Positions 10,015-39,997 of a stretch of 64,000 nucleotides of DNA are shown one piece after another; positions within the stretch are counted from its first letter, which is position 1; each line of letters begins with the position of its first letter. A program made the translations under genes and the position numbers. The notes below the pieces were generated by a model. The model ran no database searches, had not been told where the DNA came from, and saw nothing but the letters and a program-made list of their open reading frames with translations. Origin of the DNA: Candidatus Dojkabacteria bacterium (GTDB lineage: Bacteria; Patescibacteriota; Dojkabacteria; J137); NCBI GenBank assembly GCA_040006935.1, contig JBDTVZ010000003.1, positions 1,102 through 65,101 of the forward strand. The letters run 5' to 3'.

Positions 10015-10042
10015 AATCTCCTTTGTTAGATTGATGATACAA

Positions 10043-10116
10043 TAGGCCTTCGCGGACTCGAACCGCGGACCCCAGCTTTATAAGAACTGTGCTCTAACCA
10101 GCTGAGCTAAAGGCCT
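10043..10116 (-). tRNA. tRNA-Ile (anticodon TAT/UAU)
   Basis: AGGCCTT-TA-GCTC-AGCTGGTTA-GAGC-A-CAGTT-CTTATAA-AGCTG-GGGTC-CGCGG-TTCGAGT-CCGCG-AAGGCCT-A. Canonical 74-nt cloverleaf with UAU in the anticodon position. Confidence 0.8.
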
Positions 10117-10170
10117 ATGAATGAGTAATGAGAGTATAGCAAAATCTTCTTTACGATACCAGATTGAGAG

Positions 10171-13931: not shown

Positions 13932-13950
13932 AATAATTTATAATTGAATA

Positions 13951-14511: not shown

Positions 14512-14563
14512 AAGTCGTAAATACTTTAAAACAAATACATTCTATCATCTATTTATGATTATT

Positions 14564-15016
14564 TTATCTATATTTTTTCATATCTTGCTCTATGATTCTC
14601 TTCTGTTCTCTCTCTTTTATCTTTTGTCTTTTTTCGTATTTCTTTTTACCTTTTACTAATCCAATTTCTAATTTAATTAAACCTCTGTCATTTGTATATA
14701 CTTGAAGAGGAACAACTGTGGTCCCAGCTGTTTTTAAATTTTCAATTAATTTTCTAATTTGATTTTTTTGAAGCAATAACTTTCTCTCCCTCAGTTCCAA
14801 AAGTTTATCTTGGATGAAAGAAGAAGCTAAAAGTCCAATTCTAGAACCCATTAGAAATAATTCACCATTTCTCTCTCTTATAAAAGCATTTGTAATATTT
14901 GAATTCCCGTTTTTTAAAGATTTAACTTCCCAACCAAATAAAACTATTCCAGCTTCAATCTTATCGATAACCTCATAGTTAAAGTATGCTTTTTTGTTAT
15001 TAATCAGAATTTTCAT
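14564..15016 (-). CDS. smpB: SsrA-binding protein
   Basis: KKAYFNYEVIDKIEAGIVLFGWEVKSL...LLLQK...VPLQVYTNDRGLIKLEIGLVKGKKKYEKR matches SmpB. Start trimmed to the internal Met (MKILINNKK). Confidence 0.85.
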   Translation of the reverse strand: MKILINNKKAYFNYEVIDKIEAGIVLFGWEVKSLKNGNSNITNAFIRERNGELFLMGSRIGLLASSFIQDKLLELRERKLLLQKNQIRKLIENLKTAGTTVVPLQVYTNDRGLIKLEIGLVKGKKKYEKRQKIKEREQKRIIEQDMKKYR

Positions 15017-15087
15017 ATTAGGATTATACAGCCAATACAAAAAAAACTGCACATTTCTGTGCAGTTTAACTTCATTTTATATTTCAA

Positions 15088-15828
15088 TTATCTTCTTAAT
15101 GATTCACTCGTACTGATAATAGATTGTAACTGAGAGACGATATCTTCTAGCTTCCCTCTTTCGAAATCACTTAAATTTTCTCTATTCTCTTCAATTGCAT
15201 TTTCTAAAAAATTAAGAGCATTTTCAACATAAGCCATATGCTTAATAACACCAAACCTACCACTATTCATCTCAATAAGTGATTGTATCCTCCTATCAAA
15301 AACAGCTTTTCTACCAAACATATTCAGAAGGTCTTGATTAGAATCTCCTGTTAAATTCTCAACTTCTCTTATATCTGATGCTTCAGCACCAAATTCATTT
15401 GAATATGAAGCTTTCTTTTCATCAAAAAATTCTTTTGCCCTATCACTTCCTGCAAAGAAACCTTGAGTAAAAAGAGGCGTAAGTAAAATTGCAGATGTAT
15501 CGACCACCACCTCGCTTAAAGTGTCATTTGAATTACGAATAATACTTTGCATCTCTAACTGAAGAGTATCTAATTTTTCATTAAAGTCTTGCACAGCTGT
15601 ATTTAGACTAATCACCCTTGAATCAAACAAATCTGGATTCATTGAATCATCATAAGGCATAAATTCTTGACTTAAGACTCCCATTAAAACAACTGATTTT
15701 TGATAAGCTTTATAGAGCTGTACCAATTGCTCATCTGGAGTACCTTCAAGATTCTCAAATTTTCTTATTAAAACTCCCGCTTCTTCTAAAGTTGGGCTTC
15801 TTAACGACTCTTCTACTGGCAAATTCAT
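15088..15828 (-). CDS. hypothetical protein
   Basis: 246-aa ORF with no TM and no recognised motif. Confidence 0.4.
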   Translation of the reverse strand: MNLPVEESLRSPTLEEAGVLIRKFENLEGTPDEQLVQLYKAYQKSVVLMGVLSQEFMPYDDSMNPDLFDSRVISLNTAVQDFNEKLDTLQLEMQSIIRNSNDTLSEVVVDTSAILLTPLFTQGFFAGSDRAKEFFDEKKASYSNEFGAEASDIREVENLTGDSNQDLLNMFGRKAVFDRRIQSLIEMNSGRFGVIKHMAYVENALNFLENAIEENRENLSDFERGKLEDIVSQLQSIISTSESLRR

Positions 15829-15880
15829 AAGGTAAATTTATAAATAATTAATTGATATTATAGCATTTCACCTTAGTGTC

Positions 15881-18397: not shown

Positions 18398-18475
18398 GCA
18401 ATAGTGCTAAAAATAGGTACGCTTATACAGTATATAATCATTATCCTTCAATTTGAAGTAGTATTTAAAAAGTTT

Positions 18476-18718
18476 TTATCCAATCGGAAGTATTATTATA
18501 AAAATCAACACACTGGCCAGAACGATAGTGTACACCAAGGCTACAAAATTCAGAAAGAATTTATCCGGTGTTTTTATAATATTATTCATCCTCAACATTT
18601 GCCTGACTAATATTAAACCGGCGAGTAAGTGGACAAGTGCAAATACTATTGCAGCTATACGGACTATTTGGATTGCGGAAGAATTAAAATTAAGCTCCAT
18701 CTCTAAAAGTTCTAGCAA
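18476..18718 (-). CDS. possible small two-TM membrane protein
   Basis: 80-aa ORF with two hydrophobic helices, sitting in the gap between the 838-aa and PH-domain genes. It overlaps the 3' end of the upstream gene. Weak support. Confidence 0.25.
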   Translation of the reverse strand: MLELLEMELNFNSSAIQIVRIAAIVFALVHLLAGLILVRQMLRMNNIIKTPDKFFLNFVALVYTIVLASVLIFIIILPIG

Positions 18719-19364
18719 TTCTTGCTAGGTCTGAAATAATATCTCTAACTCTTGTAGGGTTAGCAATAAAGAAAAAATGAATTGTACCGTTACTATTTTC
18801 TGTTGTTATATCTACATTACCATAATTAAAGAAACTTGAAAGTACTCCAGGTGAATTTTGTTTTACACTTTCAATATTTTCTAAAGGAATTTCGTCTACA
18901 GAATAAGATGCGAAAGTTTTTAGATTAAAGTCCAATACCCTCTCATTTGTAACTATATATGTGTCGAAATACCAGTCAATGAAGTTTTTAAATGCGTTTG
19001 TAAATATGAATGAATAATATGCAAGTATAATTACAATGTAGAGCCTTAAACTTAACTCAGGGAGTAAAGGACTGAAAATGTTAAATACGACTGCAAATAT
19101 TATTGGAATTAAAGAATAGAAGATCGTCGAAACAATCCAACCAAAATTCCTTAACCAATGCCTCCTTGCTAAAATATAAATTCTTTCGTCAGGGTTTTGA
19201 CCATCAAATTTTGCTAAAGGTTTTAATTGAATGCTACTAAATCCCCAGCCTTTTTTTTGAGGTACAACACTTTCCATTTCTTGCCTCAAAGCTTGTTTCA
19301 TTTGAGCTCTAAGACTAGTTCTGTCTTCTGAAGAGAAAGTGGATGTTGTAGGTATGTTTGACAT
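18690..19364 (-). CDS. bacterial PH-domain (YdbS/YdbT-like, bPH_2) membrane protein
   Basis: Two TM helices, then a membrane-flanked PH-like region (YIVTNERVLDFNLKTFASYSVDEIPLENIESVKQ). Its start overlaps the stop of the upstream gene (ATGA). Confidence 0.5.
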   Translation of the reverse strand: MSNIPTTSTFSSEDRTSLRAQMKQALRQEMESVVPQKKGWGFSSIQLKPLAKFDGQNPDERIYILARRHWLRNFGWIVSTIFYSLIPIIFAVVFNIFSPLLPELSLRLYIVIILAYYSFIFTNAFKNFIDWYFDTYIVTNERVLDFNLKTFASYSVDEIPLENIESVKQNSPGVLSSFFNYGNVDITTENSNGTIHFFFIANPTRVRDIISDLARIARTFRDGA

Positions 19365-21115
19365 TACTGGACTTCTAAATAAAATGTTTGACTATAAATA
19401 TAATCATATGTTCCCATATCCGATGCCCAAGAGTTCCAAAGGTTTTTAAACCACCAACCTCCTAAAGATCTTGAACCTCCATTTGGCCCTGTAAACCAAA
19501 CTTTTTTAACTCTTTGAGATGGATCTCTTTCAAATGAAATTGATGAGATACTACCTCCGATATCACTGATTATAGAATTTAAATAAGACTTTGTCGAATT
19601 GTCGTAATAGTTTGTTGAAGCATTGTATAAAATCATACTTTTTACTCCATCCAAGTTATGCTGATTTGTTGTTGCTTGCCAATATGTATAATAAGTTGCT
19701 GTTGCTAAACCTGTATCATTTACTGATCTTAAATAAGGCAGAGCTGCTCCATCACCTTGTAAGTTCTGAAATATTGTATCGTTATTTGCAGTACCATTCC
19801 CTTGGCTATTATCTGCTGAGTAAAGTGCTTGAATTATAGAACCTCCGTAAGTTAATACTTGACCTCTAGTCTCATCCGCTGCCCATTGAGCATAATGTGT
19901 ACCATTATAAACTTGAGATCTCGCATCTGAATGGAGGAATCCAGCATTATAAATACCATAAGTTCTAAATGCTACAGCTTGTGCCTTAATAGCCTCTTCG
20001 GGCCAACAGCTCCAACCAGATCCATTATCTAAAGCATATTTAGCAGGATTTTGATTTACTTGGTCTTGGTTTCCGCAAGCTCGTCCAGGAACTTCGCCCT
20101 CGCCTGCAACATAATCTTCAATGTTGATAGAACCATATCCTTCAACATTCACAGCACTATTCTCGTAACCACCGACTACATTAACTCCTGTGTAATAGAA
20201 TCTAAGTATATCTTGATATCCATAGCCTCTCGAACCCATCCCATGTGCTCCCCATTGGCTCATTCCAACTCCGTGACCTTGATATAAATCTCTACCTTGG
20301 CTTCTAAATATAAATCCGCCATTTACTGGAATAGAAGGAGTTACTTGTGGCGGTGGATTGGCAAGGATTTGATCTTCCCTTTGCCTTGCTGCTTGTTGTG
20401 CTGCTTCTAATCCATCAATATTCTGTTGAATATTTTGAATTGATGCACCCAGACTATTAGCTTCTGCACTTCCTGAAGCTAATGCACCATTGTAATACGC
20501 AATACGATCTTCTAATTCTTTTTTCTTACTGGCAAGAGTTACTTTTAAATCTTCTAATTCTTTTATTTTACTATCGTAACTATCTATATCTGTAGAGAGT
20601 TTTTTTAAGTCAGATGCTATTGAAAAAATATTTCTTTGCTGTGCACCTGTTAGACTACTTGAATATTGCTCTATTTTTTTATAATCGAATTCTGTATTTA
20701 TAAATTGACCTAAGTCTAATCTGTTACCGCGCCAATCCATATAGGAAGTCTTCAGTGTTTCCTGTTGATCTATTTGCCTTTGCTGCCTTTCTAATTCTTT
20801 AAGTTTTTTACCTTGCTTAGCCACATCAAGCTCAAGTGTTTTTGCTTTAATTTCGGACTCATTTTGTTCTAACTCTGCCTGTAATTTAGGTAATTCTCCA
20901 GTAGTGGCATCAATAGTTGCTTGATAGTCCTTAAGCGTACTTTGAAGTTGGGCTAAATCATTTTGTGACTGAGTTAGTTGTTCTTGTTGTGCTGCAATAT
21001 CGTCTGCAATTTCCTGCGAAGTTTGTGCAAACGAAATAGGACTGATTGCAAATATGGTAATTGCGAAGAAAGCTCCTACAATAGTCACTTTTGTTTTAAT
21101 ATTTCTAATTTTCAT
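19364..21115 (-). CDS. SpoIID/LytB-domain cell-wall remodelling protein with N-terminal signal peptide and long coiled coil
   Basis: C-terminal YQGHGVGMSQWGAHGMGSRGYGYQDILRFYYTGVNV matches the SpoIID/LytB signature (GHGVGMSQxGA...IL..YY.G). N-terminal TM/signal, then a coiled coil of about 200 aa. Confidence 0.7.
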   Translation of the reverse strand: MKIRNIKTKVTIVGAFFAITIFAISPISFAQTSQEIADDIAAQQEQLTQSQNDLAQLQSTLKDYQATIDATTGELPKLQAELEQNESEIKAKTLELDVAKQGKKLKELERQQRQIDQQETLKTSYMDWRGNRLDLGQFINTEFDYKKIEQYSSSLTGAQQRNIFSIASDLKKLSTDIDSYDSKIKELEDLKVTLASKKKELEDRIAYYNGALASGSAEANSLGASIQNIQQNIDGLEAAQQAARQREDQILANPPPQVTPSIPVNGGFIFRSQGRDLYQGHGVGMSQWGAHGMGSRGYGYQDILRFYYTGVNVVGGYENSAVNVEGYGSINIEDYVAGEGEVPGRACGNQDQVNQNPAKYALDNGSGWSCWPEEAIKAQAVAFRTYGIYNAGFLHSDARSQVYNGTHYAQWAADETRGQVLTYGGSIIQALYSADNSQGNGTANNDTIFQNLQGDGAALPYLRSVNDTGLATATYYTYWQATTNQHNLDGVKSMILYNASTNYYDNSTKSYLNSIISDIGGSISSISFERDPSQRVKKVWFTGPNGGSRSLGGWWFKNLWNSWASDMGTYDYIYSQTFYLEVQ

Positions 21116-22638
21116 TATGCAAAATTTATTAAAAGAACTTGTCGAGATTGCATTAAATTATTTACAAAATCTAAGATTTCCTGAACAAAGTTACAATTTA
21201 CAATTAAAATTGGTAATAGGTTAGTATTTACATTTACTGACCCACTCTCTCTACCCATTTGTTCTAAAATTTGTGCTTCTAACTCTGGCTTCATTTTACC
21301 TTCTAAACTAAATTCTATATTTTCTTTTTCTATTTTTAAGATATCAACTTCCCTTCTCTTTTTATAATATTCTTCTGTATTAATGCTTTTTGATTCGATC
21401 TCTTTCAATTTAGAATCTGTGTCTATTTGTTCTTTTAAAAGTTTTGTCTTTCCCTCAGATAACTGTGTCAAATTCTTATCTCCTAGTCGTGTGTTCATTG
21501 TTGTTTCGATAAGAGATAACTCACCTTGCAATGCGTTTACCCATGCTGTGTTTAGAATCAACCTATTTTCATCTAAATCCATTTTAGGTGATAGTTGATT
21601 GTTCGAATCAACATCTACATCATCATTGGTAAACCTACCTTCATATCTATTAGCATACCTATTGATGTTCACTAGCAACATCAATACTAGCAAAGTTACA
21701 GCACTAAATAATCCTATAAATAATTGTACCAGTTGAAGTGTAATTATAAAAAATAGTAATGAAAATATACATTGCAGAACTACAAGTGCAACCATCCATT
21801 TTGCTATGAATAAAGGCATCTCTGGGCCTTCTTCTTCTATGTTTCTACCTGGAGTTTTTTTTACAGTTCGAAGATTTGAAGCTAACATTTGTGATCTGCT
21901 TTCTTTTATTTTTTCAACTTTTTGTGAGATTGTTGAGTCCGTTGTAATATTATTAAATTTTGTTAGCTCTTGTTTAATTCTATTCTGAGATTCTATAAGC
22001 ATATTTACCGACGAGAGTTTATCGTCGATAGCTTTCACTTCACGATCTATTCGTTCTTTATCTTTTTTAATTTCTTCTTTATTTTTCTTCTCATTTTGAT
22101 AAGAACTCACCTCAACTTCCATATTCTTTATCTTGACGCTTACTTCTCTATATCTAACTAACTTATCTGATTCTTCCTTGGAAAGTCCCTGTGAAGCTTG
22201 AGTTACAAGGGCTTCTATATTCCCGTCAGGTGAATTATTGATAGGTAAAAATTTTGAAGTTAATTCAGCTAAATTTGTAATTCCTGCTTTATTACAATCG
22301 AGGATTATTTCTTTCCAGGATTCATTATTAATATTCAAACCTGTTTTTTCTGAAAGGATTTGATAGATATTCCCAGGAGTTTCGATACTATTTACAAGAA
22401 TTTTCAGGGTTTTTGTTTGATAGTCCTTTACAAGAGTAATTTTTTCATTTAGTAATTGCATTTCTATTTCCGATGTTTGAATTGTATTGGTTTCTGGGAA
22501 ATTAGTTAGCGAAATTAAATCATTAACTAAAAAAACTAACTTAGAAGATGGAGATAATGTATTTCGAAAATCAATTTCAAAAGTCTCTGATTGTGTTATG
22601 ACTACTCTATATTTTGATATAGACAAAGAATAAGTCAC
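21115..22638 (-). CDS. hypothetical coiled-coil membrane protein
   Basis: 507 aa. Central hydrophobic segment (LFIAKWMVALVVLQCIFSLLFFIITLQLVQLFIGLFSAVTLLVLMLLV). Flanking K/E-rich coiled-coil regions. Its stop overlaps the downstream start. Confidence 0.5.
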   Translation of the reverse strand: MTYSLSISKYRVVITQSETFEIDFRNTLSPSSKLVFLVNDLISLTNFPETNTIQTSEIEMQLLNEKITLVKDYQTKTLKILVNSIETPGNIYQILSEKTGLNINNESWKEIILDCNKAGITNLAELTSKFLPINNSPDGNIEALVTQASQGLSKEESDKLVRYREVSVKIKNMEVEVSSYQNEKKNKEEIKKDKERIDREVKAIDDKLSSVNMLIESQNRIKQELTKFNNITTDSTISQKVEKIKESRSQMLASNLRTVKKTPGRNIEEEGPEMPLFIAKWMVALVVLQCIFSLLFFIITLQLVQLFIGLFSAVTLLVLMLLVNINRYANRYEGRFTNDDVDVDSNNQLSPKMDLDENRLILNTAWVNALQGELSLIETTMNTRLGDKNLTQLSEGKTKLLKEQIDTDSKLKEIESKSINTEEYYKKRREVDILKIEKENIEFSLEGKMKPELEAQILEQMGRESGSVNVNTNLLPILIVNCNFVQEILDFVNNLMQSRQVLLINFA

Positions 22639-22733: not shown

Positions 22734-23486
22734 TTATTCGTTAGAGATTCTTTCTAATTTCCAAATATTGTTCTCACATCTGAAGATATAAGTCTTTGTG
22801 GCTGTTGTGCAGGTCTGAGGATCACCATTTGTTGGACAAGCAAGTCCTGTTAAGCTTCCAATGGAAGAGCTAGATAAGCTTGTTCTTGTCAAATCATCGC
22901 ATGAAGCGAACTGTGATCCATTTGGATCTGTACATAAATCGGTGAAGAAAAATTGGAAACCAATTCCAATGTTATTACCTCCAGTTAAACCTTGATAGCA
23001 TTTGACTTGATTATTTACTCCAAGAAGTTTGAATATCGTAACTAGTATTGGAACAGCAAGGAAAACCAACATAAATCCAATAATATAATTAAGAATTCTC
23101 TTTCTAATTTCTGTAATTTTAGTTACATCTCCTCTTGAGATTAAGTATTGATAACCCAGGTAAACTAGTAATAGGAACGAAAATGTGGCAACTATTGCCC
23201 ATATTGCATACACTACTCTAACAAAAAGGACTTCCAACTCCTGGAGTGCGGGTGGTTTTAAAACAGCCTTTATCCTAACTCCATCTTCATCAATACAATA
23301 AAACTCTCCTTGTGCAGAATCAAATTGAACTGTTGCAGAAATCAATGTTCCGTCTTGTTTAAAACATTGATAGCTACTGGCATTGTTCCCGGAAAAAGGG
23401 GCTTCCTGTATTTGTGCTTTTACTACAGGCGATATGAGTGCGAATAGAACAAAAAATGCTACTGAAGTCAGTATAGACTTTCTCAT
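22734..23486 (-). CDS. pilin-like two-TM protein paralog 1 (signal peptide, Cys-rich N- and C-terminal ectodomains)
   Basis: Signal peptide. TM - LISRGDVTKITEIRKRILNYIIGFMLVF - TM core shared with the five downstream paralogs. Cys-rich C-terminal tail. Confidence 0.5.
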   Translation of the reverse strand: MRKSILTSVAFFVLFALISPVVKAQIQEAPFSGNNASSYQCFKQDGTLISATVQFDSAQGEFYCIDEDGVRIKAVLKPPALQELEVLFVRVVYAIWAIVATFSFLLLVYLGYQYLISRGDVTKITEIRKRILNYIIGFMLVFLAVPILVTIFKLLGVNNQVKCYQGLTGGNNIGIGFQFFFTDLCTDPNGSQFASCDDLTRTSLSSSSIGSLTGLACPTNGDPQTCTTATKTYIFRCENNIWKLERISNE

Positions 23487-23968
23487 AGGTTAGGCTTGAC
23501 TGTATTTGGAATAACGTTATTGATTTCGTTTAAATCTCCTCCAACACTTGCGTTAAAGAATGCAAGGATAATAACTATTCCAATAATACCAATGAACAAA
23601 GCAGCTATACCTATAAATACAGATTTAATAGCTTTTTGTGCTTCTTGAATTTTTGTATCGTCACCTTCACTCCTAATGTATTTGATTGCAGCTCTTATAA
23701 TTATGTAAATTGAAACTACAATAATACCAATGAAGATTAATTGTAATGCTAATCTTACTAGGGAAACTCCTGCTCCAACAGCAACCGATCCGTCAACTTG
23801 ATCTCCGCACAATGTACCTGCTCCAAAGCCTAGGTTTTGAATAAATGGAAATATTGTACAAATCAAATTCTGTGCATGGACTGGCATTGCAAACAATATA
23901 TTATTTAAACTGAACAATGAAAATACTAATGTTGAGATTGCAAATATTTTCTTTGAGATATCTTTCAT
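23483..23968 (-). CDS. pilin-like two-TM protein paralog 2
   Basis: Signal peptide. TM1 - IRSEGDDTKIQEAQKAIKSVFIGIAALF - TM2. 4-nt overlap with the upstream gene. Confidence 0.55.
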   Translation of the reverse strand: MKDISKKIFAISTLVFSLFSLNNILFAMPVHAQNLICTIFPFIQNLGFGAGTLCGDQVDGSVAVGAGVSLVRLALQLIFIGIIVVSIYIIIRAAIKYIRSEGDDTKIQEAQKAIKSVFIGIAALFIGIIGIVIILAFFNASVGGDLNEINNVIPNTVKPNL

Positions 23969-24034
23969 GAATTGTTAATTAAAATATACTTTTATTTATA
24001 TTATAAGAATTATCCTGTCAATGTCAAAAAGAAT

Positions 24035-24403
24035 TTACAAAGGAATGGTTACTCCTGGAGGAACAATGGGAGTTGTATTAATAATTCCCCCTGCTCCAAA
24101 GAATGCTATGACCACTACAAGTCCGATTAATCCAACGAATATGAGCACTATTCCAATAAATACGCCCTTAACCATTGAATATCCTTCTTGTATTTTAGTA
24201 GGATCCCCTTCACTTCTGACAATCTTTAGAACAGCTTTAACTACAATGACAATTCCATAAATAATAATAATGGCAAATATAGAAGCCATACCTATTCTTA
24301 ATAAACCTCCAATACTTGTAAAATTCCAAAAAGGTGAGTTTAGAAATTGAGTACAACCTAATAATCCACATCCAGTTTGATTATCGAAAAACATTCTACT
24401 CAA
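24035..24403 (-). CDS. pilin-like two-TM protein paralog 3
   Basis: TM1 - VRSEGDPTKIQEGYSMVKGVFIGIVLIF - TM2, with a Gly-rich C-terminus. Confidence 0.55.
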   Translation of the reverse strand: MSRMFFDNQTGCGLLGCTQFLNSPFWNFTSIGGLLRIGMASIFAIIIIYGIVIVVKAVLKIVRSEGDPTKIQEGYSMVKGVFIGIVLIFVGLIGLVVVIAFFGAGGIINTTPIVPPGVTIPL

Positions 24404-24469
24404 TTAAAAATTATAAATTAAGAATTATAAGAAGGACTAAAATTCTAGAACCTTTATAATCCCTCATTT

Positions 24470-25009
24470 TTAATTTTGTGAGCTTAAACCGCAAACCTGA
24501 GAAGCAAACGTGGTAGGGTCTTCTCCAGCCGGTGCATTAAAATATGCTTTGAAATAATATTCATACTCTGTATTTGGGCAGCCACTGAACATTTTAGGCC
24601 AATTGAAAATACTACCTATTCCTAATACAAATCCAATTACTGTTAATAATATTGGTATTAAAAAAGTTAAAGCTACGCCAACTAAGCTTGCCTGGATCTT
24701 TTTGTACGACTCTGATAATTTTTCAGGATCTCCTTCACTCCTTACTGCATCTAATCCTGCAAGAAGAATTCTAACAATCCATAGAATTATAACTAAAATG
24801 ATAATTACACTCCCAGCAAATGTGATCCAAGAAAGTACAGTGAAGTACTGGGGATTTATAGAACCAAAAACTGGGAAGAAAGGAATTATAATCGGGTCTA
24901 TATTTAATTTATTACCGGTGATATCTAACGCCTGTGCGTGAAGAACTAAAGGTGAGAAAATAGACAATGAGCCTAAAATTGTTAAGAGCGTTTTCTTTAA
25001 ATTTTTCAT
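24470..25009 (-). CDS. pilin-like two-TM protein paralog 4
   Basis: Signal peptide. TM1 - VRSEGDPEKLSESYKKIQASLVGVALTFL - TM2. C-terminal tail with two Cys. Confidence 0.55.
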   Translation of the reverse strand: MKNLKKTLLTILGSLSIFSPLVLHAQALDITGNKLNIDPIIIPFFPVFGSINPQYFTVLSWITFAGSVIIILVIILWIVRILLAGLDAVRSEGDPEKLSESYKKIQASLVGVALTFLIPILLTVIGFVLGIGSIFNWPKMFSGCPNTEYEYYFKAYFNAPAGEDPTTFASQVCGLSSQN

Positions 25010-25011
25010 TT

Positions 25012-25641
25012 TTAAGTTATAACAATTTCTGTACCTGTATTGGTAACATTAAGATCATTCAAATTCCCAATTCCTAATACTGTTGCTACAAATTGGATTA
25101 TAAATATAAATGACCAAGCAAGTATAAACCCAATTATTAAATTTACAATCTCCTTGTTTATTTTTGAAATATCATCACTTGAAGTTACTCCTGGTCTAAT
25201 TACTGCACCAAGATAAGCTCCTCGAGCTAAAGCATATATTGAAACTATTCCTAAGAAAGTTGATATTATTGCATTAATTAATGAAGGTATGCTTCCAGAT
25301 GAGAATGAAAATTTTGTTCCAAAAATATTAAAGGATCGAATTAAGCTTGCATCCCCAGGATCTATTGTCCCGATTGTACCCCCTCCATTACATTTATTAG
25401 AGCAACAAATTGTTTGTGGATTTAGGAATTTCGCATTTGAACATGAAAAATCGGGAACGTAGCAATTTGTATCGTTTTGGGATTTACAAGCAGTTGGACA
25501 TGCATCTGGTATTCCAAAGGGTGCCTGGCAACCAGCGGGGAATCCTGAATCTGCATTGATTTTATTTACGGATTCGAAGGATAATAGCGCAAAGAAAAAT
25601 ATGCTTAACAAAAGAATACTTTTTGAATATCTTTTAATCAT
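25012..25641 (-). CDS. pilin-like two-TM protein paralog 5 (Cys-rich N-terminal ectodomain)
   Basis: Signal peptide. Roughly 80-aa Cys-rich region (CQAPFGIPDACPTACKSQNDTNCYVPDFSCSNAKFLNPQTICCSNKC). TM1 - IRPGVTSSDDISKINKEIVNLIIGFILA - TM2. Confidence 0.5.
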   Translation of the reverse strand: MIKRYSKSILLLSIFFFALLSFESVNKINADSGFPAGCQAPFGIPDACPTACKSQNDTNCYVPDFSCSNAKFLNPQTICCSNKCNGGGTIGTIDPGDASLIRSFNIFGTKFSFSSGSIPSLINAIISTFLGIVSIYALARGAYLGAVIRPGVTSSDDISKINKEIVNLIIGFILAWSFIFIIQFVATVLGIGNLNDLNVTNTGTEIVIT

Positions 25642-25650
25642 ATTTATTAA

Positions 25651-25959
25651 TTAACCTCCAGATAAACCTAATCCTTGTACTCCTATTAATCCTGCTACAA
25701 AATTTACAATTGTTGGTGCAAGAACTGCCAATACAAAACCAATTATTGCAGCAATGATGATTTTTCTCGCACTCGAAACTTGCTCTGCATTGTCTCTAGC
25801 AGTTAAATACTGAAAAGCTCCAAATAAAAGCATTGCTGCAAATGTTAATAAGAACACAGGGACAACTAATCTTGTAATGGCGTTAATAATATCTTCTAAA
25901 TTATTGAATACAGTGGGGTTTGGGATTTGAAAAGCTTTTCCACTATTAGTTACGTCCAT
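25651..25959 (-). CDS. pilin-like two-TM protein paralog 6
   Basis: 102 aa. TM1 - LTARDNAEQVSSARKIIIAAIIGFVLAV - TM2. Most diverged member of the array. Confidence 0.5.
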   Translation of the reverse strand: MDVTNSGKAFQIPNPTVFNNLEDIINAITRLVVPVFLLTFAAMLLFGAFQYLTARDNAEQVSSARKIIIAAIIGFVLAVLAPTIVNFVAGLIGVQGLGLSGG

Positions 25960-25982: not shown

Positions 25983-28571
25983 CTATTTAATTTCTTTAAC
26001 TTCAAGTCCACTAAAGTAAACATCGTTTCCTGATTTTAGTCTACCTTGAATTATTAAGTTTGCCAATATATCTTCAATGTTATCTTGCACAACTCTCTTT
26101 AATTCTCGGGCACCATAGATTGGATTGTACGCAAGTGCTGAAAGTTCTTCCAAAGTTTTTTCATCCCAGAATACAGACATACCTTTTGTTTCAAGGTTAC
26201 GATCCAATGCTTTTAGATTAATTTCAACAACCTCTTTGATCTCTTCTTGATTTAAGGACTTAAACATAATTAATTTATCAAATCTGTTTAAGAATTCGAT
26301 TCTGAACTCCTTTCGAAGAATTGGTGCGGTTTCTTTAAGGACTTCATTATATTTTTCCCCCCTCTCAATTAATTCTGCAATTTGTTCGGATGCGGCATTG
26401 GATGTCATTATTATGATTGTATTTGTGAAATCTACTTTTCTACTCATGCCATCAGTTATCGATCCTTCATCTAGTACTTGAAGGAATAAATCTAGAACTT
26501 TTTTATTAGCCTTTTCAATTTCGTCTAACAGAATTAGTGAATATGGTTTTAATTTAACAGCATCCGTTAGATAGCCTCCCACAAAATTACCACCATTATC
26601 AGTATAACCAATAAGCCTATTCAAGTTTGACTCTTCTTGGTATTCGGACATATCTATTCGAATCATTAAGTTTGAGCTACCATAATAAACGTCCGCTAGA
26701 GTTTTTGCGGACTCGGTTTTCCCCACTCCTGTTGGACCATAAAATAAGAAACTCGCTACCGGTTTTTGCTTGAAGCCACTAAGTCCTGACCTTGCTCTTC
26801 TGATTGCCATAGCGATACTTTTAATCGCATCGTCTTGACCCACGACTCCTTCATGCATGGTATCTTCCAGCTTCATTAATCGTTCGGATTCTCCTTGATC
26901 CACTGTTCCTATATTTATTCCCACTTTACTAGAGATTAATTGCTCTGCGATTTGATTATTTAGGTAATTAAGCCCTTGGCTTTTTGCTAATAGTATTGCT
27001 TCCTCTAAAAGATCGATACCCTTATCTGGCATTGATCTTTCGGCTTCAAATCTAGGAGCGAATTCAACTATTTTTTTAATTGCACTTACCTGAACTTTAA
27101 TTCCATATTTATTTTCTAGCTTATCTAATTCGTCTACTAGGATTTGCTGAGAAAGATAACTTGAAGGTTCTTTAATTTCGACAACTTCGAAAAGAGATGC
27201 GAGAGACTTTATGGGTTTAATGTATTTATTGTAAATTGTAAGGTTACTTGTCGCTATTAACCTTAATTTAAGCGCATCAATAGCATTAACTAACAGATTT
27301 ACTACTTCCATCCGACCTTCTTCTCGTATTGACATTACTTGTCCTATCTCTTCTAAAACTAGGATAATATTTCCTGAATTTTTTACTTCCTCTAAGCATT
27401 TTTGAATTATTGCTTTGAAACTATCTATAGAGCCTGCTTTAGTTAAAACCTTATTAAGATCAATGGTAATTAATCTCGAATCCTGAAGGCTGGCTGGAAC
27501 ATCCTCTACGCTCATTTTTGTAGCAAGATACTTTACAAGAGTGGTTTTACCAACGCCAGGTTCTCCAAGTAATAGACATGCCGCTCCTGAACCTTTTTGA
27601 AGAATTCTTAGAAAGTTAGATATTTCGATTTCACGTCCTATCGAAGTTGTAAATTCACCTTTGGCAGATCTCGCAGTTAGGTCCTCTGAGTAAATATCCA
27701 AAGTTGGGGTAGCACGAGAAGTATATGACCGGTTGATAGGGCCTGTGGGTTTAAGTTTAGAAATAATTTTCCATCTTTTGTAATAATTTTCTTTTCTTAA
27801 TTCGTTTTTTTGCCAAACTTCAAGTGAATTAATGTCTAATTCGTTTACTCCAAAGCTTAATAAAGCACTTTTTAAAACTCCTCTACATAAAACAAAGAAC
27901 ATTGTTACCACATCGATTTTGTCTCCTCCTAAAAATATTGCTTCTTGAGTACTAGCTACTAAAAGACCAATATAATTGGAAGTGAAAGTGCAATCAATCG
28001 TTTGCAAATACGACATGGATTTCTGAATTATATTTGAAGAATTTACCCCTAATCTTTTCTCAATCAGTTCCCGAAGATTTGAATGATTTAATACATACGA
28101 AATGAAAATTTTAAGAAAGTCTTTTTCAGATTCAAAGTATAAGTTATCTAAAACAGTTAAAAGTTCCACGGTCAAAAATTCATTTATAATCAGTCCATTT
28201 CTTTTTCCTTTAGTTGCCCTATCCAACTCTTTTGGTAAGTTTGTAATTCGATCAGAATCGAGAAATTCTTCTCTATTTCGTTTAAGGAAGAGTCCATAAA
28301 GCCCTACTGGCATTGCCATATAAGCTAAGAGATATTCAAAAGAGCTGGGGAATAAATAACCTTGTAAATCGAATCCAGTAAAAAATATTGTTATAAAAAG
28401 ACTAGATAAAATAATTAATATAGCTAAAACAACAAGTGCGTTACCAAAACTTTTTTCAATAGTAATTTTATTCTTTAGCCCCCCTCTATCTTTAAATAAA
28501 TGAGATAAATCTATCCGGACATCTACCCCATTAACTGTTCCTATTTTTTGAGTTCCTCTTAATATTTTCAT
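25983..28571 (-). CDS. Clp/Hsp100-family double AAA+ ATPase (ClpC/ClpB-like) with N-terminal transmembrane extension
   Basis: N-terminal region of about 100 aa with two hydrophobic helices. Clp_N-like repeats follow. D1 Walker A LLLGEPGVGKTTL preceded by DLTARSAKGEFTTSIGREIEI. D2 FLFYGPTGVGKTE...RLIGYTDNGGNFVGGYLTDAV...LLDEIEKA. Confidence 0.75.
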   Translation of the reverse strand: MKILRGTQKIGTVNGVDVRIDLSHLFKDRGGLKNKITIEKSFGNALVVLAILIILSSLFITIFFTGFDLQGYLFPSSFEYLLAYMAMPVGLYGLFLKRNREEFLDSDRITNLPKELDRATKGKRNGLIINEFLTVELLTVLDNLYFESEKDFLKIFISYVLNHSNLRELIEKRLGVNSSNIIQKSMSYLQTIDCTFTSNYIGLLVASTQEAIFLGGDKIDVVTMFFVLCRGVLKSALLSFGVNELDINSLEVWQKNELRKENYYKRWKIISKLKPTGPINRSYTSRATPTLDIYSEDLTARSAKGEFTTSIGREIEISNFLRILQKGSGAACLLLGEPGVGKTTLVKYLATKMSVEDVPASLQDSRLITIDLNKVLTKAGSIDSFKAIIQKCLEEVKNSGNIILVLEEIGQVMSIREEGRMEVVNLLVNAIDALKLRLIATSNLTIYNKYIKPIKSLASLFEVVEIKEPSSYLSQQILVDELDKLENKYGIKVQVSAIKKIVEFAPRFEAERSMPDKGIDLLEEAILLAKSQGLNYLNNQIAEQLISSKVGINIGTVDQGESERLMKLEDTMHEGVVGQDDAIKSIAMAIRRARSGLSGFKQKPVASFLFYGPTGVGKTESAKTLADVYYGSSNLMIRIDMSEYQEESNLNRLIGYTDNGGNFVGGYLTDAVKLKPYSLILLDEIEKANKKVLDLFLQVLDEGSITDGMSRKVDFTNTIIIMTSNAASEQIAELIERGEKYNEVLKETAPILRKEFRIEFLNRFDKLIMFKSLNQEEIKEVVEINLKALDRNLETKGMSVFWDEKTLEELSALAYNPIYGARELKRVVQDNIEDILANLIIQGRLKSGNDVYFSGLEVKEIK

Positions 28572-28897
28572 ATTTGAAATCTCAGAAAGTTAATAATTTG
28601 CAATGGAAGGATCAAAGGAAGTGAAAATAGGAAGATAAATATTAATACATTCGGAACAATAAAAATAAAACTAACTACACTACCACTTGCAATCCACCAT
28701 AACCTGATTATTATTCCTAAAAATTTCCCCAGGGATGAACTATCTTGATATAAAGGTTTTCCAAAATTCTTGGCATTAGGCAATGCATTGGTTACATTGA
28801 GTAGATAAGAAAAACGAAGCGTAACATGATCTCGAAAGAAACCAAGAACAAAAATTTGATAGTACCAAACAAAGAAATTTAGAATATATTCTTTCAT
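28568..28897 (-). CDS. small polytopic membrane protein (translationally coupled to the Clp-like gene)
   Basis: 109-aa hydrophobic ORF. Its stop overlaps the start of the Clp-like gene by 4 nt. First gene of the long minus-strand string. Confidence 0.45.
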   Translation of the reverse strand: MKEYILNFFVWYYQIFVLGFFRDHVTLRFSYLLNVTNALPNAKNFGKPLYQDSSSLGKFLGIIIRLWWIASGSVVSFIFIVPNVLIFIFLFSLPLILPLQIINFLRFQI

Positions 28898-29014
28898 TTA
28901 TAGAGTTTATTAATACGTCAATTGTACAGGAAATTCTTATGCTTTTGTATACACTACAATCCTTTACAGAATTTACTGAGAAAGGTATAATTCGGCTTAT
29001 ATTACATACTGATA

Positions 29015-29500
29015 ATGGAAATAAGAATTTTAGATAATATACTATTTGATGATTATAATGTTACAGAATTTACTGATAATCTTCAGTTGAACTTAGATAC
29101 CTTAAGCAAATTTCTTCCATTTAAAGGATTTAACAATCACGAAAGCACTTTATTAAACGCGCTCGCAAGTCTCTTACATAATTCTCACATACCTTTAAGC
29201 TCCTTAGGCCTAAGGAGTAATCCATTTACTGACCATATGAACTTTATAGGATTTATTCTAAACGATTCTATACAAGCAAGCGTTGAGTCTAATGAAGAAG
29301 CACAGGAGTTATTTTTCAAAATATTTAGAGATATCCGACAGTTCTTCACATTCATTGCTAAACATCCAGAAAGTAAACTTACAGAGGAACAACTAAACAT
29401 TGTTACCGGATTAATCCTAAAACCACTTAAAGAAATGGCAAAATTATTAGAAATTGATTCCGAAAGACCTTTACCTGATATAGCTGAAAATCAAGAATAA
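29015..29500 (+). CDS. hypothetical protein
   Basis: 161-aa ORF, divergent from the cluster. No motif recognised. Confidence 0.4.
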   Translation: MEIRILDNILFDDYNVTEFTDNLQLNLDTLSKFLPFKGFNNHESTLLNALASLLHNSHIPLSSLGLRSNPFTDHMNFIGFILNDSIQASVESNEEAQELFFKIFRDIRQFFTFIAKHPESKLTEEQLNIVTGLILKPLKEMAKLLEIDSERPLPDIAENQE

Positions 29501-29568
29501 AAAAGAGTCCCAATCTCTCAGGACCCTCTTCTCGTAACTCATTCACACATAATCTAAACCTCTCTAAT

Positions 29569-36155: not shown

Positions 36156-37358
36156 TTAGGAGTAGACTCCAATATCATCTGGAATAAATTGTCTAAAGTT
36201 ATCTTTTGTTATTCGGACACCTTTAACCAACCCCTGGACTATTTGCAGGGCTACTTTTCTAGCTAATTCGGTCAAAGTTCTTTCTAACTGCCTAACTCCT
36301 GCGTCAAATCCTAAAGGTCTAATTACTAAAGGCCAAACATCATCATCAAATGCAAGTTGATCCTCCTGCATGCCGGTTGCTTCCCTTACTTTTGGTAGAA
36401 GGTAATTTTTTGCAATCATCATCTTGTCATTGTCCGTATAACTCCCAAACCTAATTACTTCAAGCCTATCCAGAAGAGCCGCAGAAATTCCTCCGAGATT
36501 ATTAGCAGTACAAATAAACATTGCTTTGGATAAATCTACAGGATAATCTACATACTTATCCATGAAAGTCGAGTTCTGCTCAGGGTCTAAGATTTCTAGT
36601 AAAGCAGCCATAACGTCCGCTTTAGTTCCTCCAGAACTTGATATCTTTTCTATTTCGTCTAATAGAATCAAAGGGTTCATACTTTCTGTTCGAACCAAAG
36701 ACTTTATGATCTGACCGGGCTCTGCATTTAGTTGACCTCTTACAATACCTCTAATCTCTGTTACAGAGCTCAAACCTCCAAGAGAGATTCTCATAAATTT
36801 CCTATTTAATGCCAAAGCCATGGCCTTAGCAATCGATGTTTTACCAACTCCTTGGATACCTACAAAACAAAGTATTGGTGCGTGAGATGAATTTCCCTGC
36901 AATCTAGACATTTCATCAGAAGAATCTCCAACAGCACTCTCTGCTACTTTCCCTTGCTGGTTTTGAAGCTTTGTAACGGCTAAATATTCCATTACTCTAT
37001 TCTTCACTGGCTCAAGTCCATAATTATATTTATCTAAAACCGCTTTTGCATTTACTAAGTCCAAAGTTTCTTCTTGATATTTACCAAATGGAATTTGACT
37101 TACCCAATTGATATATTCTGATACTGGTTCAAACTCTTGAGAATAACCTCCTGTTTGAGCCATTTTTACAAGTCTGAATATCATTCCTTCTGCCTTTTCT
37201 TTGAGTCCAGTAGGCATTTGTGATACCTCTATTTTCTTCTTTAAAGCATCTATTTCGACGTTTAAATCCAACACTGCTGATGATGATGCGACTGGCGTTA
37301 CTGTTGGCTGCTGAGGAGCTGGTGTTACTGGTTGTGGATTTGAATTTACTGGTTCCAT
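36156..37358 (-). CDS. Lon-like AAA+ ATPase module lacking the protease domain
   Basis: LKEKAEGMIFRLVKM...YINWVSQIPFGKYQ...YGLEPVKNRVMEYLAV is the Lon middle region. Walker A GIQGVGKTSIAKAMA. RISLGGLSSVTEIRG, ALLEILDPEQNSTFMDKY, ICTANN and LLDRLEVIRFGSYT follow. The ORF stops at ...FIPDDIGVYS, exactly where the Ser-Lys protease domain should begin. Confidence 0.7.
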   Translation of the reverse strand: MEPVNSNPQPVTPAPQQPTVTPVASSSAVLDLNVEIDALKKKIEVSQMPTGLKEKAEGMIFRLVKMAQTGGYSQEFEPVSEYINWVSQIPFGKYQEETLDLVNAKAVLDKYNYGLEPVKNRVMEYLAVTKLQNQQGKVAESAVGDSSDEMSRLQGNSSHAPILCFVGIQGVGKTSIAKAMALALNRKFMRISLGGLSSVTEIRGIVRGQLNAEPGQIIKSLVRTESMNPLILLDEIEKISSSGGTKADVMAALLEILDPEQNSTFMDKYVDYPVDLSKAMFICTANNLGGISAALLDRLEVIRFGSYTDNDKMMIAKNYLLPKVREATGMQEDQLAFDDDVWPLVIRPLGFDAGVRQLERTLTELARKVALQIVQGLVKGVRITKDNFRQFIPDDIGVYS

Positions 37359-39394: not shown

Positions 39395-39432
39395 CACGAA
39401 CGTGTGATGGCCTTTTGGTGGAGATGACCGGT
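39395..39432 (-). terminator. intrinsic terminator (minus-strand reading)
   Basis: Hairpin GCCATCACACGTTCGTGGTGGC (7/8-bp stem). On the minus strand it is followed by TTTTTTATTT. It lies between the upstream ORF-free region (and comF) and the yidC promoter region. Confidence 0.5.
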
Positions 39433-39997
39433 TACCCGGTGTCCATGTAAACTTCAAATAACACAGCTTTACATACTTAGTACATTTGGATACATAAGCT
39501 CATAAAAATATACAAAAACAAGCTTAAGAATCTCCCCTATCTTAATTTCAAAACTAAAAGATTAAAGGGTTTTGAAAAGCATTCTAACTTTGGGACGCTT
39601 ACAGTTCTCATTAGAAGGAAGAAATTGTAAACGGCAGTCCTACTTGTTGTTTCGGTCTGCTCTTATATTTTAGGCAAATGCATAATTCACATTTCCCAAA
39701 GGAGCAGTGAGTAAATTCTTTACAAAAGATACAAGATTTGAAATTGGTTTGACGTTTAGGTCAAGTTTGCCCGAAGGCAAGTTAAATTTTTTTTAACGAA
39801 GATTCTTAACTAAACTTCGGTATGCTATGAAATTTTTAATCTACTGTCGAGAAAACATCCCCCTTAAAAAGTCTTCCGTTCTGAGTTTCCAGTCTTGAGA
39901 AACTACTTAAGGTGAACGATTTCAGACATGTTAATTATACCATAGAATAACAATTTTGACGACACTACTCTCCGGCTCTTATTTCGACCAGGCCGCG

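Follow-up and report, generated by a model that had tools for sequence, protein, structure and literature searches.

In the 64-kb stretch of DNA analyzed here (the window), which is part of a 213-kb contig from a Candidatus Dojkabacteria genome, two adjacent genes on the minus strand encode a 109-aa membrane protein and an 862-aa ATPase of the Clp/Hsp100 type with two AAA+ modules (Table 1). The stop codon of the 109-aa ORF and the start codon of the ATPase gene share 4 nt (ATGA). Six pilin genes lie downstream, the first beginning 23 nt past the ATPase stop codon, and no terminator-like site was found in this gap by a consensus scan. The remainder of a conserved T4SS-like block beyond the pilin genes codes for a 507-aa unknown protein, a SpoIID-domain protein (583 aa), a bPH protein, two unknowns of 838 and 246 aa, SmpB, a 186-aa unknown, and an 817-aa VirB4/VirD4-like ATPase. 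The window also contains a gene for a separate FtsH (4481 to 6859). No match to the CIRCE heat-shock operator was present within the window, so this search gave no hint of regulation, and the window ORFs scanned, which lie in its first 37.4 kb, included no T6SS families.

Table 1. Features of the gene pair and its surroundings in the window
Feature	Position	Strand	Basis or remark
Membrane partner gene, 109 aa	28568..28897	-	ORF calls, comparison of loci, AF2
Clp/Hsp100-type double AAA+ ATPase, membrane-anchored (predicted), whole gene, 862 aa	25983..28571	-	Pfam/NCBIfam, alignments
N-terminal beta-hairpin, aa 7-21	28509..28553	-	AF2 model, relatives
TM helix 1, aa ~44-66	28374..28442	-	Kyte-Doolittle, conservation, AF2
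TM helix 2, aa ~77-96	28284..28343	-	Conservation, AF2
All-alpha domain, Clp_N-like fold, aa 112-272	27756..28238	-	AF2, Foldseek; Pfam in relatives
D1 AAA+ module, aa ~290-530	26982..27704	-	Pfam, alignments
D2 AAA+ module and D2-small, aa ~560-851	26019..26894	-	Pfam, alignments
Six VirB2-like T4SS pilin genes	22734..25959	-	Pfam PF18895, synteny
Pilin ORF	25651..25959	-	PF18895 47.7 bits, over gathering score
Pilin array ORF	25012..25641	-	PF18895 below cut-off
Pilin array ORF	24470..25009	-	PF18895 below cut-off
Pilin array ORF	24035..24403	-	No PF18895 match at E <= 0.01
Pilin array ORF	23483..23968	-	PF18895 below cut-off
Pilin ORF	22734..23486	-	PF18895 33.4 bits, over gathering score
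Terminator-like hairpin just 3' of groEL, between groESL and the gene pair	29499..29532	-	Consensus scan only
Promoter-like site 5' of the 109-aa ORF, 10/12 consensus positions	29052..29079	-	Consensus scan only, weak
Rest of the conserved T4SS-like block	11478..22638	-	Pfam/NCBIfam, synteny

The initial annotation had described an N-terminal extension of the ATPase with two hydrophobic helices, and this description was borne out. Its length, its start, and the two hydrophobic segments are shared by 21 orthologs (41-72% identity), whose first 100 residues align in register with G30, L96, and R98 invariant. The order of beta-hairpin, two-helix membrane hairpin, and a diverged domain of predicted Clp_N fold is likewise kept in these orthologs. 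In the AF2 model of the ATPase (pLDDT 86), a helical hairpin precedes an alpha domain; one helix spans aa 32-65 with a pLDDT of >90, and TM2 forms the second arm of the hairpin. TM1 is strongly hydrophobic (Kyte-Doolittle value 3.04). TM2 is less so and lies under the hydropathy cut-off of 1.6, yet it is conserved and directly followed by the invariant L96 and R98. We assigned the topology from hydropathy, the positive-inside rule, and the AF2 model rather than with a dedicated predictor. By the positive-inside rule, the beta-hairpin is predicted to be cytoplasmic; in relatives, a CxxCxGxG zinc ribbon is located immediately N-terminal of the equivalent segment.

The 'Clp_N-like repeats' of the initial annotation were not recovered at the sequence level, as neither Pfam nor a PDB profile search matched Clp_N in aa 112-272, but they found support in the predicted fold and in relatives. 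This block was modeled with a pLDDT of about 88-95, and its best Foldseek matches were the Hsp100/HSP101 N-domains 4irf, 4iod, and 7tfm. For 4irf and 4iod the probability was 0.93-0.99 and the TM score 0.54-0.60, but the E value was about 0.3; for 7tfm the probability was 0.77. At the equivalent position of the relatives P0199, P0180, and P0228, Pfam Clp_N scored above its cut-off.

Pfam placed AAA at residues 333-452 (86.6 bits), AAA_lid_9 at 475-528 (32.3 bits), AAA_2 at 603-766 (174 bits), and ClpB_D2-small at 773-851 (69.5 bits). All four domains exceeded their cut-offs, so the protein has two AAA+ modules, the second of the AAA_2 type and followed by D2-small. Both D1 and D2 had been called intact; both modules can indeed be recognized, but the catalytic motifs are complete in D2 alone. 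In alignments with Thermus thermophilus ClpB and Staphylococcus aureus ClpC, Walker A, Walker B, sensor 1, the arginine finger, and sensor 2 of D2 are all intact. D1 retains its Walker A motif (GEPGVGKT) and reads EE in Walker B where DE is expected; its arginine fingers and pore-loop tyrosine are absent in the alignments to ClpB, ClpC, and family sequences. With this set of motifs, the D1 ring probably binds nucleotide without hydrolyzing it. Across 76 family sequences, all D2 motifs are invariant and D1 is degenerate. The D1 pore-loop position reads SIDSFKA compared to KYRGEFE in ClpB, and the D2 pore loop is GNFVGG in place of GYVG. The D2 pore-loop aromatic is a phenylalanine in 17 of the 21 Dojkabacteria orthologs (F-[VI]-G-G loop), and there is none in other Patescibacteria. 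Since the D1 pore tyrosines are missing and those of D2 only loosely replaced, processive threading is not assured.

The M-domain of ClpB (roughly 115 aa), which couples ClpB/Hsp104 to DnaK, is absent, as the alignment to 1qvr skips ClpB residues 390 to 504. The ClpP-docking loop [ILV]-G-[FL] after D2 sensor 1 was found in none of the 76 family sequences; the loop region is gapless against ClpB and gapped where ClpC carries ..RFAGFGG... Judged by these motifs, the ATPase is not equipped for cooperation with either ClpP or DnaK. Public records name the protein 'ATP-dependent Clp protease ATP-binding subunit' or ClpC, a designation that is misleading because the docking loop is missing.

The 109-aa partner belongs to no Pfam family, and a Foldseek search with its AF2 model (pLDDT 93.9) revealed no meaningful structural neighbors in the PDB. 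Its sequence contains the motif P48-L-[FY]-x-D52-x-S54-x-x-G57, after which comes a hydrophobic helix of 54 residues. In the comparison of loci, the label Dojkabacteria-type refers to a grouping by synteny and by similarity over the full length, and not to a verified taxonomic assignment; many of the records are titled 'uncultured Candidatus Saccharibacteria'. The proposed translational coupling of the partner to the ATPase agrees with these loci: the partner gene is directly upstream in 44/44 cases, and the spacing is a 4-nt overlap in 21 of 48 pairs and between -8 and +1 nt in 32 of 48. At other loci, the partner is fused to the ATPase N-terminus (L006, L062, L066, L067, L070, L071, L079, P0154, P0156, and others), and at the distant locus L057 it is separate from the ATPase gene but overlaps it. 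The two genes are translationally coupled here and form one polypeptide in other Patescibacteria, and the pair is kept, split or fused, across ultra-small Patescibacteria. An exhaustive search with a partner-domain profile returned 45,949 matches, all Clp-like ATPases; this number is no count of the partner domain and is uninformative on it, because the whole of the fused protein P0052 (838 positions) had been drawn into the profile. The partner sequences taken from this search were about 30 of 150 listed representatives, aligning from residue ~2-12.

In a neighbor-joining tree of the D2 module, with ClpB and ClpC as the only references, the family was split from canonical ClpB and ClpC in 200/200 bootstraps. 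In the homolog search, bit scores fell from 676 to 391 past the last ortholog. The module is therefore a Patescibacteria family apart from the canonical ClpB and ClpC sequences compared. As a signature, which is proposed here and does not represent a curated family, we suggest a partner domain immediately upstream or fused, with F-x-W-[WY]-Y ... P-[LMW]-[FYW]-x-D ... G-[RK] and a hydrophobic helix, together with an ATPase that has a membrane helix before the N-domain and neither M-domain nor ClpP loop; the present locus shows all of these. A homolog search with the fused N-terminus from Daviesbacteria yielded only fragments at contig ends and one added context, identical to that of L006.

Our best explanation, held with about even confidence, is that the module docks at the membrane and, independently of ClpP, remodels membrane proteins or extracts them; in Dojkabacteria, pilins would be likely local clients. 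The ATPase would assemble as a hexamer, which its own hairpin together with the partner protein would tether to the membrane on the cytoplasmic side. Clp rings thread substrate from the N-domain side toward D2; because the anchor is N-terminal, the N-domain/D1 entry face would be expected to point toward the bilayer and the D2 motor ring into the cytosol. Such a membrane-facing entry side is what a pilin extractor would need. ATP hydrolysis by D2 would then pull on or remodel proteins in, or emerging from, the membrane, which would be released and not fed to a protease. In Dojkabacteria, the module is probably on one transcript with the array of two-helix VirB2-like pilins, which would be its likeliest clients at this locus, to be either extracted from the membrane pool or subjected to quality control. 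This pilin link would be lineage-specific and not the defining role of the family.

The gathering score of PF18895 (T4SS_pilin) is 26.6 bits; three of the array members under this cut-off score 16.7-18.7 bits, and all six ORFs have homologs in the same order at other loci. On this domain evidence, the six ORFs are predicted to be T4SS/VirB2-type pilins and not type IV pili, the VirB2 naming based on PF18895 following PMC12102498. As the initial annotation had noted for this locus, the ATPase is placed beside putative pilin genes: T4SS_pilin-domain genes directly follow it at 44 of 48 Dojkabacteria-type loci with downstream sequence, with gaps down to -20 nt and overlapping stop and start codons at several of them. 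Adjacency alone is weak evidence, because in Dojkabacteria a block of roughly 30 kb, including groES-groEL and smpB, is syntenic throughout. It is, however, kept at four loci where the groEL linkage is lost (L015, L024, L040, and L056). The ATPase gene also stands at the 5' end of the conserved block ending in the VirB4/VirD4-like ATPase, and a membrane-facing entry side would suit two-helix membrane clients. These observations would fit a dedicated pilus factor that extracts, delivers, or disassembles VirB2-like pilins, as ClpV recycles the T6SS sheath. We nevertheless consider this role, which the initial annotation had favored, unlikely. VirB4 is the pilin dislocase in studied T4SSs, and at two Dojkabacteria-type loci a UvrD-type helicase-nuclease is inserted between ATPase and pilins. 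In a 2025 survey of T4SS clusters in Patescibacteria, neither Clp nor AAA proteins are listed among the components. At 28 loci of other Patescibacteria, a custom HMM and Pfam applied to 137 flanking ORFs detected no pilin gene (0/28) within about 4.5-10 kb. Since the module also occurs without nearby pilin genes, its conserved core function is probably not pilin-specific.

The genes on the other side would fit a role in general proteostasis, the module being a membrane-tethered, ClpB-like disaggregase or unfoldase of the lineage in a chaperone cluster with GroES-GroEL. In most Dojkabacteria loci, groES-groEL is located just upstream, in many at a distance of about 100 nt; moreover, D2 is closest to ClpB, the ClpP loop is missing as in ClpB, and the family is widespread whatever its neighbors. 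Among the 120 matches listed, no canonical ClpB or ClpC was labeled Patescibacteria, which is weak evidence in the same direction. Against this stand the absent M-domain, the lost pore-loop tyrosines, and the conserved membrane hairpin with its dedicated partner, which is hard to square with a cytosolic disaggregase. In addition, a terminator-like hairpin lies between groEL and the module, the slot between them varies among loci, and the window contains no CIRCE element. A general chaperone function thus appears improbable to us.

In other Patescibacteria, the neighbors are cell-envelope or housekeeping genes, the former including PMT_2 and GT1 glycosyltransferases, an epimerase, LytR-CpsA-Psr, MurD, and MreC/PBP2, and one family member (P0248) is fused to a MraY/WecA-type Glycos_transf_4 domain. 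Together with the degenerate D1 and the aromatic pore loops lost across the family, this is compatible with a Torsin-like scaffold or regulator, in which ATP turnover by D2 would regulate or assemble an envelope complex without translocating polypeptides. We regard this as quite unlikely, as D2 possesses the full hydrolysis apparatus including its own arginine finger and the F-[VI]-G-G loop is kept in Dojkabacteria; furthermore, the envelope neighborhoods were seen in a small number of related lineages, so that common descent could account for them, and the fusion is a single case. A ClpA/ClpC-like unfoldase for ClpP-dependent degradation at the membrane would agree with a ClpP-like 199-aa gene just upstream of the module (L001/L014) and with the alignment of the ClpA model in a single stretch, but the latter is due to the missing M-domain, that gene occurs in one genome only, the docking loop is absent, the region is gapless against ClpB, and the ClpA model stays far below its cut-off, so that partnership with ClpP is largely refuted and very improbable. 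Nothing was found in favor of an artefactual start with a soluble ClpC-like product initiated at a downstream methionine (codons 85 and 87), and this possibility is practically negligible in view of the N-terminal conservation, the confident model, the recurrent 4-nt overlap, and the longer N-termini of the same design in relatives.

A large part of bacterial diversity belongs to the Patescibacteria, yet most of the membrane machinery conserved in them has no assigned function. The module described here adds a conserved partner subunit, encoded by its own coupled gene or present as a fused domain, of what is predicted to be a membrane-integrated Hsp100. For the AAA+ field, a ring whose D1 is presumably silent and whose aromatic pore loops are weak or lost may serve as a natural test case, and for the Patescibacteria field the module is a concrete candidate for handling the essential, unexplained VirB2-like pilin arrays. 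A bolder idea, which we put forward only tentatively and consider rather doubtful, is that Patescibacteria possess their own Hsp100 class, a membrane-built ring with a small membrane subunit, a silent D1, and a D2 without the classical tyrosine grips. It might act as a general membrane-protein dislocase or insertion-release motor, which in Dojkabacteria, for example, would provide VirB2-like pilins to the essential T4SS of the epibiont or recycle them, and it might replace the presumably missing ClpB/ClpC.

To our knowledge, a membrane-integrated two-ring Clp/Hsp100 has not been described in bacteria, and a literature search for such a protein with a partner subunit found nothing; a Saccharibacteria Tn-seq paper makes no mention of a membrane-Clp module. 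The ATPase shares with ClpB/Hsp104 the N-domain fold (as predicted), the two AAA+ rings, and the lack of a ClpP loop, and its D2 and D2-small are closest to ClpB, 1qvr being the best PDB match. In contrast to ClpB, it is predicted to be membrane-anchored with a dedicated membrane partner, it lacks the coiled-coil M-domain and the pore-loop tyrosines, and its D1 is degenerate; the ClpB equivalog TIGR03346 was not reached (474.7 bits, cut-off 1232.1). The layout of putative N-domain, D1, and D2 resembles that of ClpA, ClpC, and ClpE, and as in ClpA there is no long M-domain, the ClpA model aligning from residue 129 to 851. Unlike these proteins, the ATPase is presumably held in the membrane, has no IGL/VGF ClpP-docking loop and no conserved clpP neighbor, and does not reach the ClpA equivalog TIGR02639 (411.5 bits, cut-off 993.15).

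With ClpV/TssH, it has in common that a Clp-family ATPase uncoupled from ClpP is encoded inside a secretion-system gene block. The analogy drawn in the initial annotation found no specific support beyond this: no T6SS genes were seen among the window ORFs scanned, the ClpV equivalog TIGR03345 was not reached (398.2 bits, cut-off 884.95), ClpV is soluble and binds the sheath protein via its N-domain whereas the present ATPase is predicted to be membrane-integrated, and members of the present family are also found where no secretion genes are close by. Plasmodium HSP101 of PTEX is similarly a ClpB-type, ClpP-independent ring that acts at a membrane with dedicated membrane proteins, and in structure aa 112-272 match its N-domain best, at the level of fold only (about 14% identity). 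However, HSP101 is not membrane-integrated, keeps canonical pore loops and the M-domain, and pushes substrates into a pore, whereas the present ATPase is expected to take entry from the membrane side. FtsH and Msp1/ATAD1 belong to the classical AAA proteins, with a single ring and aromatic pore loops, FtsH having a protease domain in addition, and differ in this respect from the two-ring Clp/Hsp100 found here. They share with it the N-terminal membrane anchor, which would set the entry face of the ring against the bilayer, and pulling proteins out of the membrane is the job that we propose for the present ATPase.

The ATPase, a Clp/Hsp100-type protein with two AAA+ modules (D1 and D2), is encoded together with a small membrane protein (the partner), whose ORF overlaps the start of the ATPase ORF by 4 nt (ATGA). 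In a database search the ATPase was 100% identical to an NCBI protein record of a Candidatus Dojkabacteria MAG whose only name is "ATP-dependent Clp protease ATP-binding subunit." Pfam domains were assigned to residues 333-452 (AAA), 475-528 (AAA_lid_9), 603-766 (AAA_2), and 773-851 (ClpB_D2-small), and no Clp_N match was obtained. The NCBIfam models of ClpB, ClpA, ClpV, ClpK, and ClpG all matched, but all far under their curated cut-offs (ClpB, 475 bits with a cut-off of 1232; ClpA, 411 and 993; ClpV, 398 and 885); the ClpA model covered residues 129-851 as a single unbroken alignment. The database search returned 22 full-length relatives (42-100% identity, 839-908 aa), beyond which the score fell from 676 to 391 bits, onto ordinary ClpB and ClpC proteins.

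Coordinates of the gene pair and of features around it in the window
Feature	Position	Strand	Length	Remark
Partner ORF	28568..28897	minus	109 aa
ATPase ORF	25983..28571	minus	862 aa
Variable slot between groEL and partner	28898..29568			plus-strand 161-aa ORF inside, no homolog in 86 loci
Pilin-like array	22734..25959	minus		six ORFs
Consensus promoter	24000..24027	minus		TTGACA-16-TATAAT
Coiled-coil and SpoIID/LytB protein	19364..21115	minus	583 aa	right after the pilin array, conserved there
Lon ATPase module only	36156..37358	minus	400 aa	NCBIfam lon model positions 255-567; Pfam AAA and Lon_lid
smpB	14564..15052	minus
tmRNA gene	39416..39862	minus
tRNA-Ile/integrase/GH25 lysozyme region	10042..10117, 9163..10014, 7213..7992	minus, plus, plus

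The initial annotation had described an N-terminal extension with two hydrophobic helices. In an alignment of 21 of the full-length relatives, the start of the ATPase, TM1 (residues ~44-66), and TM2 (residues ~77-96) were in register. TM1 is strongly hydrophobic (Kyte-Doolittle 3.04), while TM2 is weaker, lying below the threshold of 1.6, with the residues L96 and R98 directly after it being invariant in the 21 relatives. An AlphaFold2 model of residues 1-300 based on this alignment (pLDDT 86, pTM 0.77) comprised a beta-hairpin (7-21), a long helix (32-65), a return helix (78-96), and a compact all-alpha domain (112-272). The aligned start and helices and the confident model show that the extension is real and refute an artefactual N-terminus with the true start downstream. 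Because nine Lys or Arg residues occur within the first 43 residues, the helical hairpin would fit an N-in orientation with the ATPase part in the cytoplasm. A profile of residues 1-300 gave no sequence match among solved structures. By probability, the best structural matches to the model in Foldseek were Hsp100 N-domains, namely Plasmodium HSP101 (4irf/4iod; probability 0.93-0.99, TM-score 0.54-0.60 on the target) and Leishmania Hsp100 (7tfm; probability 0.77), the E-values being weak (~0.3). At the equivalent position, relatives from other Patescibacteria scored above the Pfam cut-off for Clp_N of 20.7 bits (P0199, 32.4; P0180, 30.9; P0228, 25.3). The annotated Clp_N-like repeats therefore probably hold at the level of the fold, although Pfam does not detect them in the ATPase itself.

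The partner was found immediately upstream of the ATPase in all 44 species-representative Dojkabacteria-type loci of GTDB genomes with upstream sequence; for many loci the assigned taxon name is a placeholder. Upstream of a 47%-identical ATPase ortholog, a partner with 45% identity had been missed by the gene caller and was detected by tblastn. The identical 4-nt overlap was present in 21 of 48 pairs, and in 32 of the 48 the junction lay between -8 and +1 nt. The Daviesbacteria protein P0052 begins with ~100 residues that align colinearly to the 109-aa partner (PLFHDSSIVGRVLSVIFRLFRI versus PLYQDSSSLGKFLGIIIRLWWI; pairwise BLAST E-value 1e-5, full-length alignment). A partner HMM matched within the ATPase, at its N-terminus, in the related loci L006, L062, L066, L067, L070, L071, and L079, and a separate upstream ORF in L051, L057, L061, and L064, with the same 4-nt overlap in L057; many further fused forms were recognized by visual inspection. 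These results support the annotated translational coupling. Since the gene pair of one lineage is a single fused protein in others, the comparison provides strong evidence for a physical association of partner and ATPase. The partner matched no Pfam family, and no informative structural neighbor was found for its very confident AlphaFold2 model (pLDDT 93.9), in which the hydrophobic helix of 54 residues is compatible with differing numbers of membrane passes. On a metagenome contig (L087, 904..3334), three ORFs encode a 109-aa partner, a 357-aa piece, and a 299-aa D2-only piece, representing a truly split ATPase or, alternatively, a copy that is frameshifted or decayed.

The pilin-like genes next to the ATPase belong to PF18895. 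This family was used to call VirB2-like pilins in Patescibacteria in a 2025 survey of type IV secretion systems (T4SS), which reported arrays of 2-11 genes and mentioned no Clp or AAA protein (PMC12102498). Several of the paralogs in the window share an inter-helix loop motif, V/I-R-S-E-G-D-x-x-K-I/L, and are otherwise very divergent; a perfect 12/12 sigma-70 consensus promoter lies just upstream of the fifth gene. Proteins of 380-700 aa ending in the pilin domain are present in some genomes. Downstream sequence was available for 48 Dojkabacteria-type loci, and in 44 of them the ATPase is followed by pilin-like genes; among the other four, three extend for ~1.4 kb or less downstream, and L051 has ~3.5 kb without a pilin match. 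The gap was at most 133 nt in 28 of 47 loci, a set including loci from additional contig look-ups, and some genes overlap by 4-20 nt. In most remaining loci the product of the intervening gene is large and itself has PF18895 at its C-terminus, a UvrD/PD-(D/E)XK helicase gene being inserted only in L005 and L046. The link is kept in L015, L024, L040, and L056 although groEL is no longer adjacent. A role dedicated to pilins, as initially proposed, agrees with this linkage, but the whole ~30-kb block is syntenic in the Dojkabacteria-type class, and no recurrent pilin genes were found in 28 loci of other Patescibacteria (pilin HMM; Pfam on 137 flanking ORFs). Flanking genes at these loci encode PMT_2 and GT1 glycosyltransferases, an epimerase, DUF4012, LytR-CpsA-Psr, MurD, and an MFS transporter; in Daviesbacteria the neighbors are mreB-mreC-pbp2-dprA. 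The synteny, the pilin-free loci, and these other neighbors count against a putative pilin-specific function.

On the minus strand of the window, the gene order is a Lon-type AAA module, an FtsA/PilM-like gene, a 681-aa unknown, groES, groEL, the variable slot, the partner, the ATPase, six pilin-like genes, a 507-aa unknown, the SpoIID-domain protein, a bPH protein, 838-aa and 246-aa unknowns, smpB, a 186-aa unknown, and an 817-aa VirB4/VirD4-like ATPase. A consensus scan indicated a terminator-like hairpin behind groEL and no such site in the 23 nt that separate the first pilin gene from the ATPase. Elsewhere, the variable slot holds a ClpP-like gene in one genome (L001, 9104..9703) and a VirB4/VirD4-like ATPase gene in another (L013, 6693..9056), and in many loci it measures only ~100 nt. 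The Lon-type protein lacks a protease domain, and its position is conserved in other Dojkabacteria loci. The SpoIID protein combines a long coiled-coil N-terminal half (weak SMC/Rad50-like matches) with a SpoIID/LytB peptidoglycan-remodelling domain and is a candidate for opening the cell wall in the T4SS-like system. smpB lies within the conserved T4SS-like block, ~25 kb from the tmRNA gene. A tRNA-Ile gene (anticodon TAT) adjoins a XerC/phage-type integrase gene, two tRNA-Met genes, and a GH25 lysozyme gene, and this region may represent the border of an integrated element.

Some relatives from other Patescibacteria (P0187, P0199, P0204, P0243, and others) have a second N-terminal design, in which two CxxCxGxG motifs in a zinc-ribbon or DnaJ-like segment (weak DnaJ zinc-finger matches) precede two membrane helices, followed by Clp_N, D1, and D2. 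L057 (9041..11809) combines this design with a separate partner gene. The segment right behind the zinc ribbon appears to be the counterpart of the beta-hairpin in Dojkabacteria. In a neighbor-joining tree built on the D2 module with ClpB and ClpC for comparison (42 sequences, 286 columns), all 200 of 200 bootstraps split the Patescibacteria members from the canonical ClpB and ClpC sequences taken together, and the Dojkabacteria were monophyletic in 156 of 200. The 1231-aa protein P0248 is fused C-terminally to Glycos_transf_4, an MraY/WecA-type membrane enzyme (97.9 bits); this fusion and the glycosyltransferase, LytR-CpsA-Psr, MurD, or MreC/PBP2 neighbors hint at a cell-envelope connection.

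Catalytic motifs were compared by residue-level alignments to Thermus thermophilus ClpB and Staphylococcus aureus ClpC and in a family alignment of 76 sequences. D1 and D2 had both been annotated as intact, which applies to D2 (GPTGVGKT, LLDEIEKA, TSN, R-x-EFLNRFD, GAR) but not to D1. There, Walker A is retained, Walker B reads E-E instead of D-E (EE, ED, DD, DN, EH, or EN across the family), S-L replaces the R-R arginine fingers of ClpB, and S its pore-loop Tyr; many non-Dojkabacteria members carry K, Q, or R for the Walker A Thr. The M-domain (~115 residues in ClpB) is absent in the alignment to T. thermophilus ClpB, which together with the membrane anchor makes a tethered general chaperone unlikely, despite the neighboring groESL genes. 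The D2 pore loop in Dojkabacteria is GNF[VI]GG, with F in 17, L in 3, and V in 1 of 21 sequences at the F position; in other Patescibacteria it is without an aromatic residue (e.g., PPGQPG or PPGHRG) or shortened. The aromatic loss weakens any claim of classical threading and favors a non-threading regulator of envelope machinery, a reading that we still regard as quite improbable. ClpP-coupled degradation is effectively excluded, as the check for a ClpP-docking loop in D2 found none in the ClpB and ClpC alignments or the 76 family sequences, the segment after sensor 1 being gapless against ClpB with a gap opposite ..RFAGFGG.. of ClpC.

From the architecture and partnership of the two proteins we infer, as the simplest reading, that the ATPase docks at the membrane and remodels or extracts membrane proteins. 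A literature search with partial journal coverage returned no account of the present family or of any bacterial Clp/Hsp100 protein that is integrated into the membrane. VirB2-like pilins, small membrane proteins with two helices, have to exit the bilayer to polymerize, and in Dojkabacteria the pilins, likely co-transcribed with the ATPase, would be obvious candidate clients; family-wide, the clients must be more general. D2 would serve as the sole motor, and because a ClpP loop is lacking, the ATPase would release its products without degradation. To our knowledge, the N-domain/D1 face is the substrate entry side in all Clp/Hsp100 rings studied, and the N-terminal anchor of the ATPase would set this entry face against the membrane.
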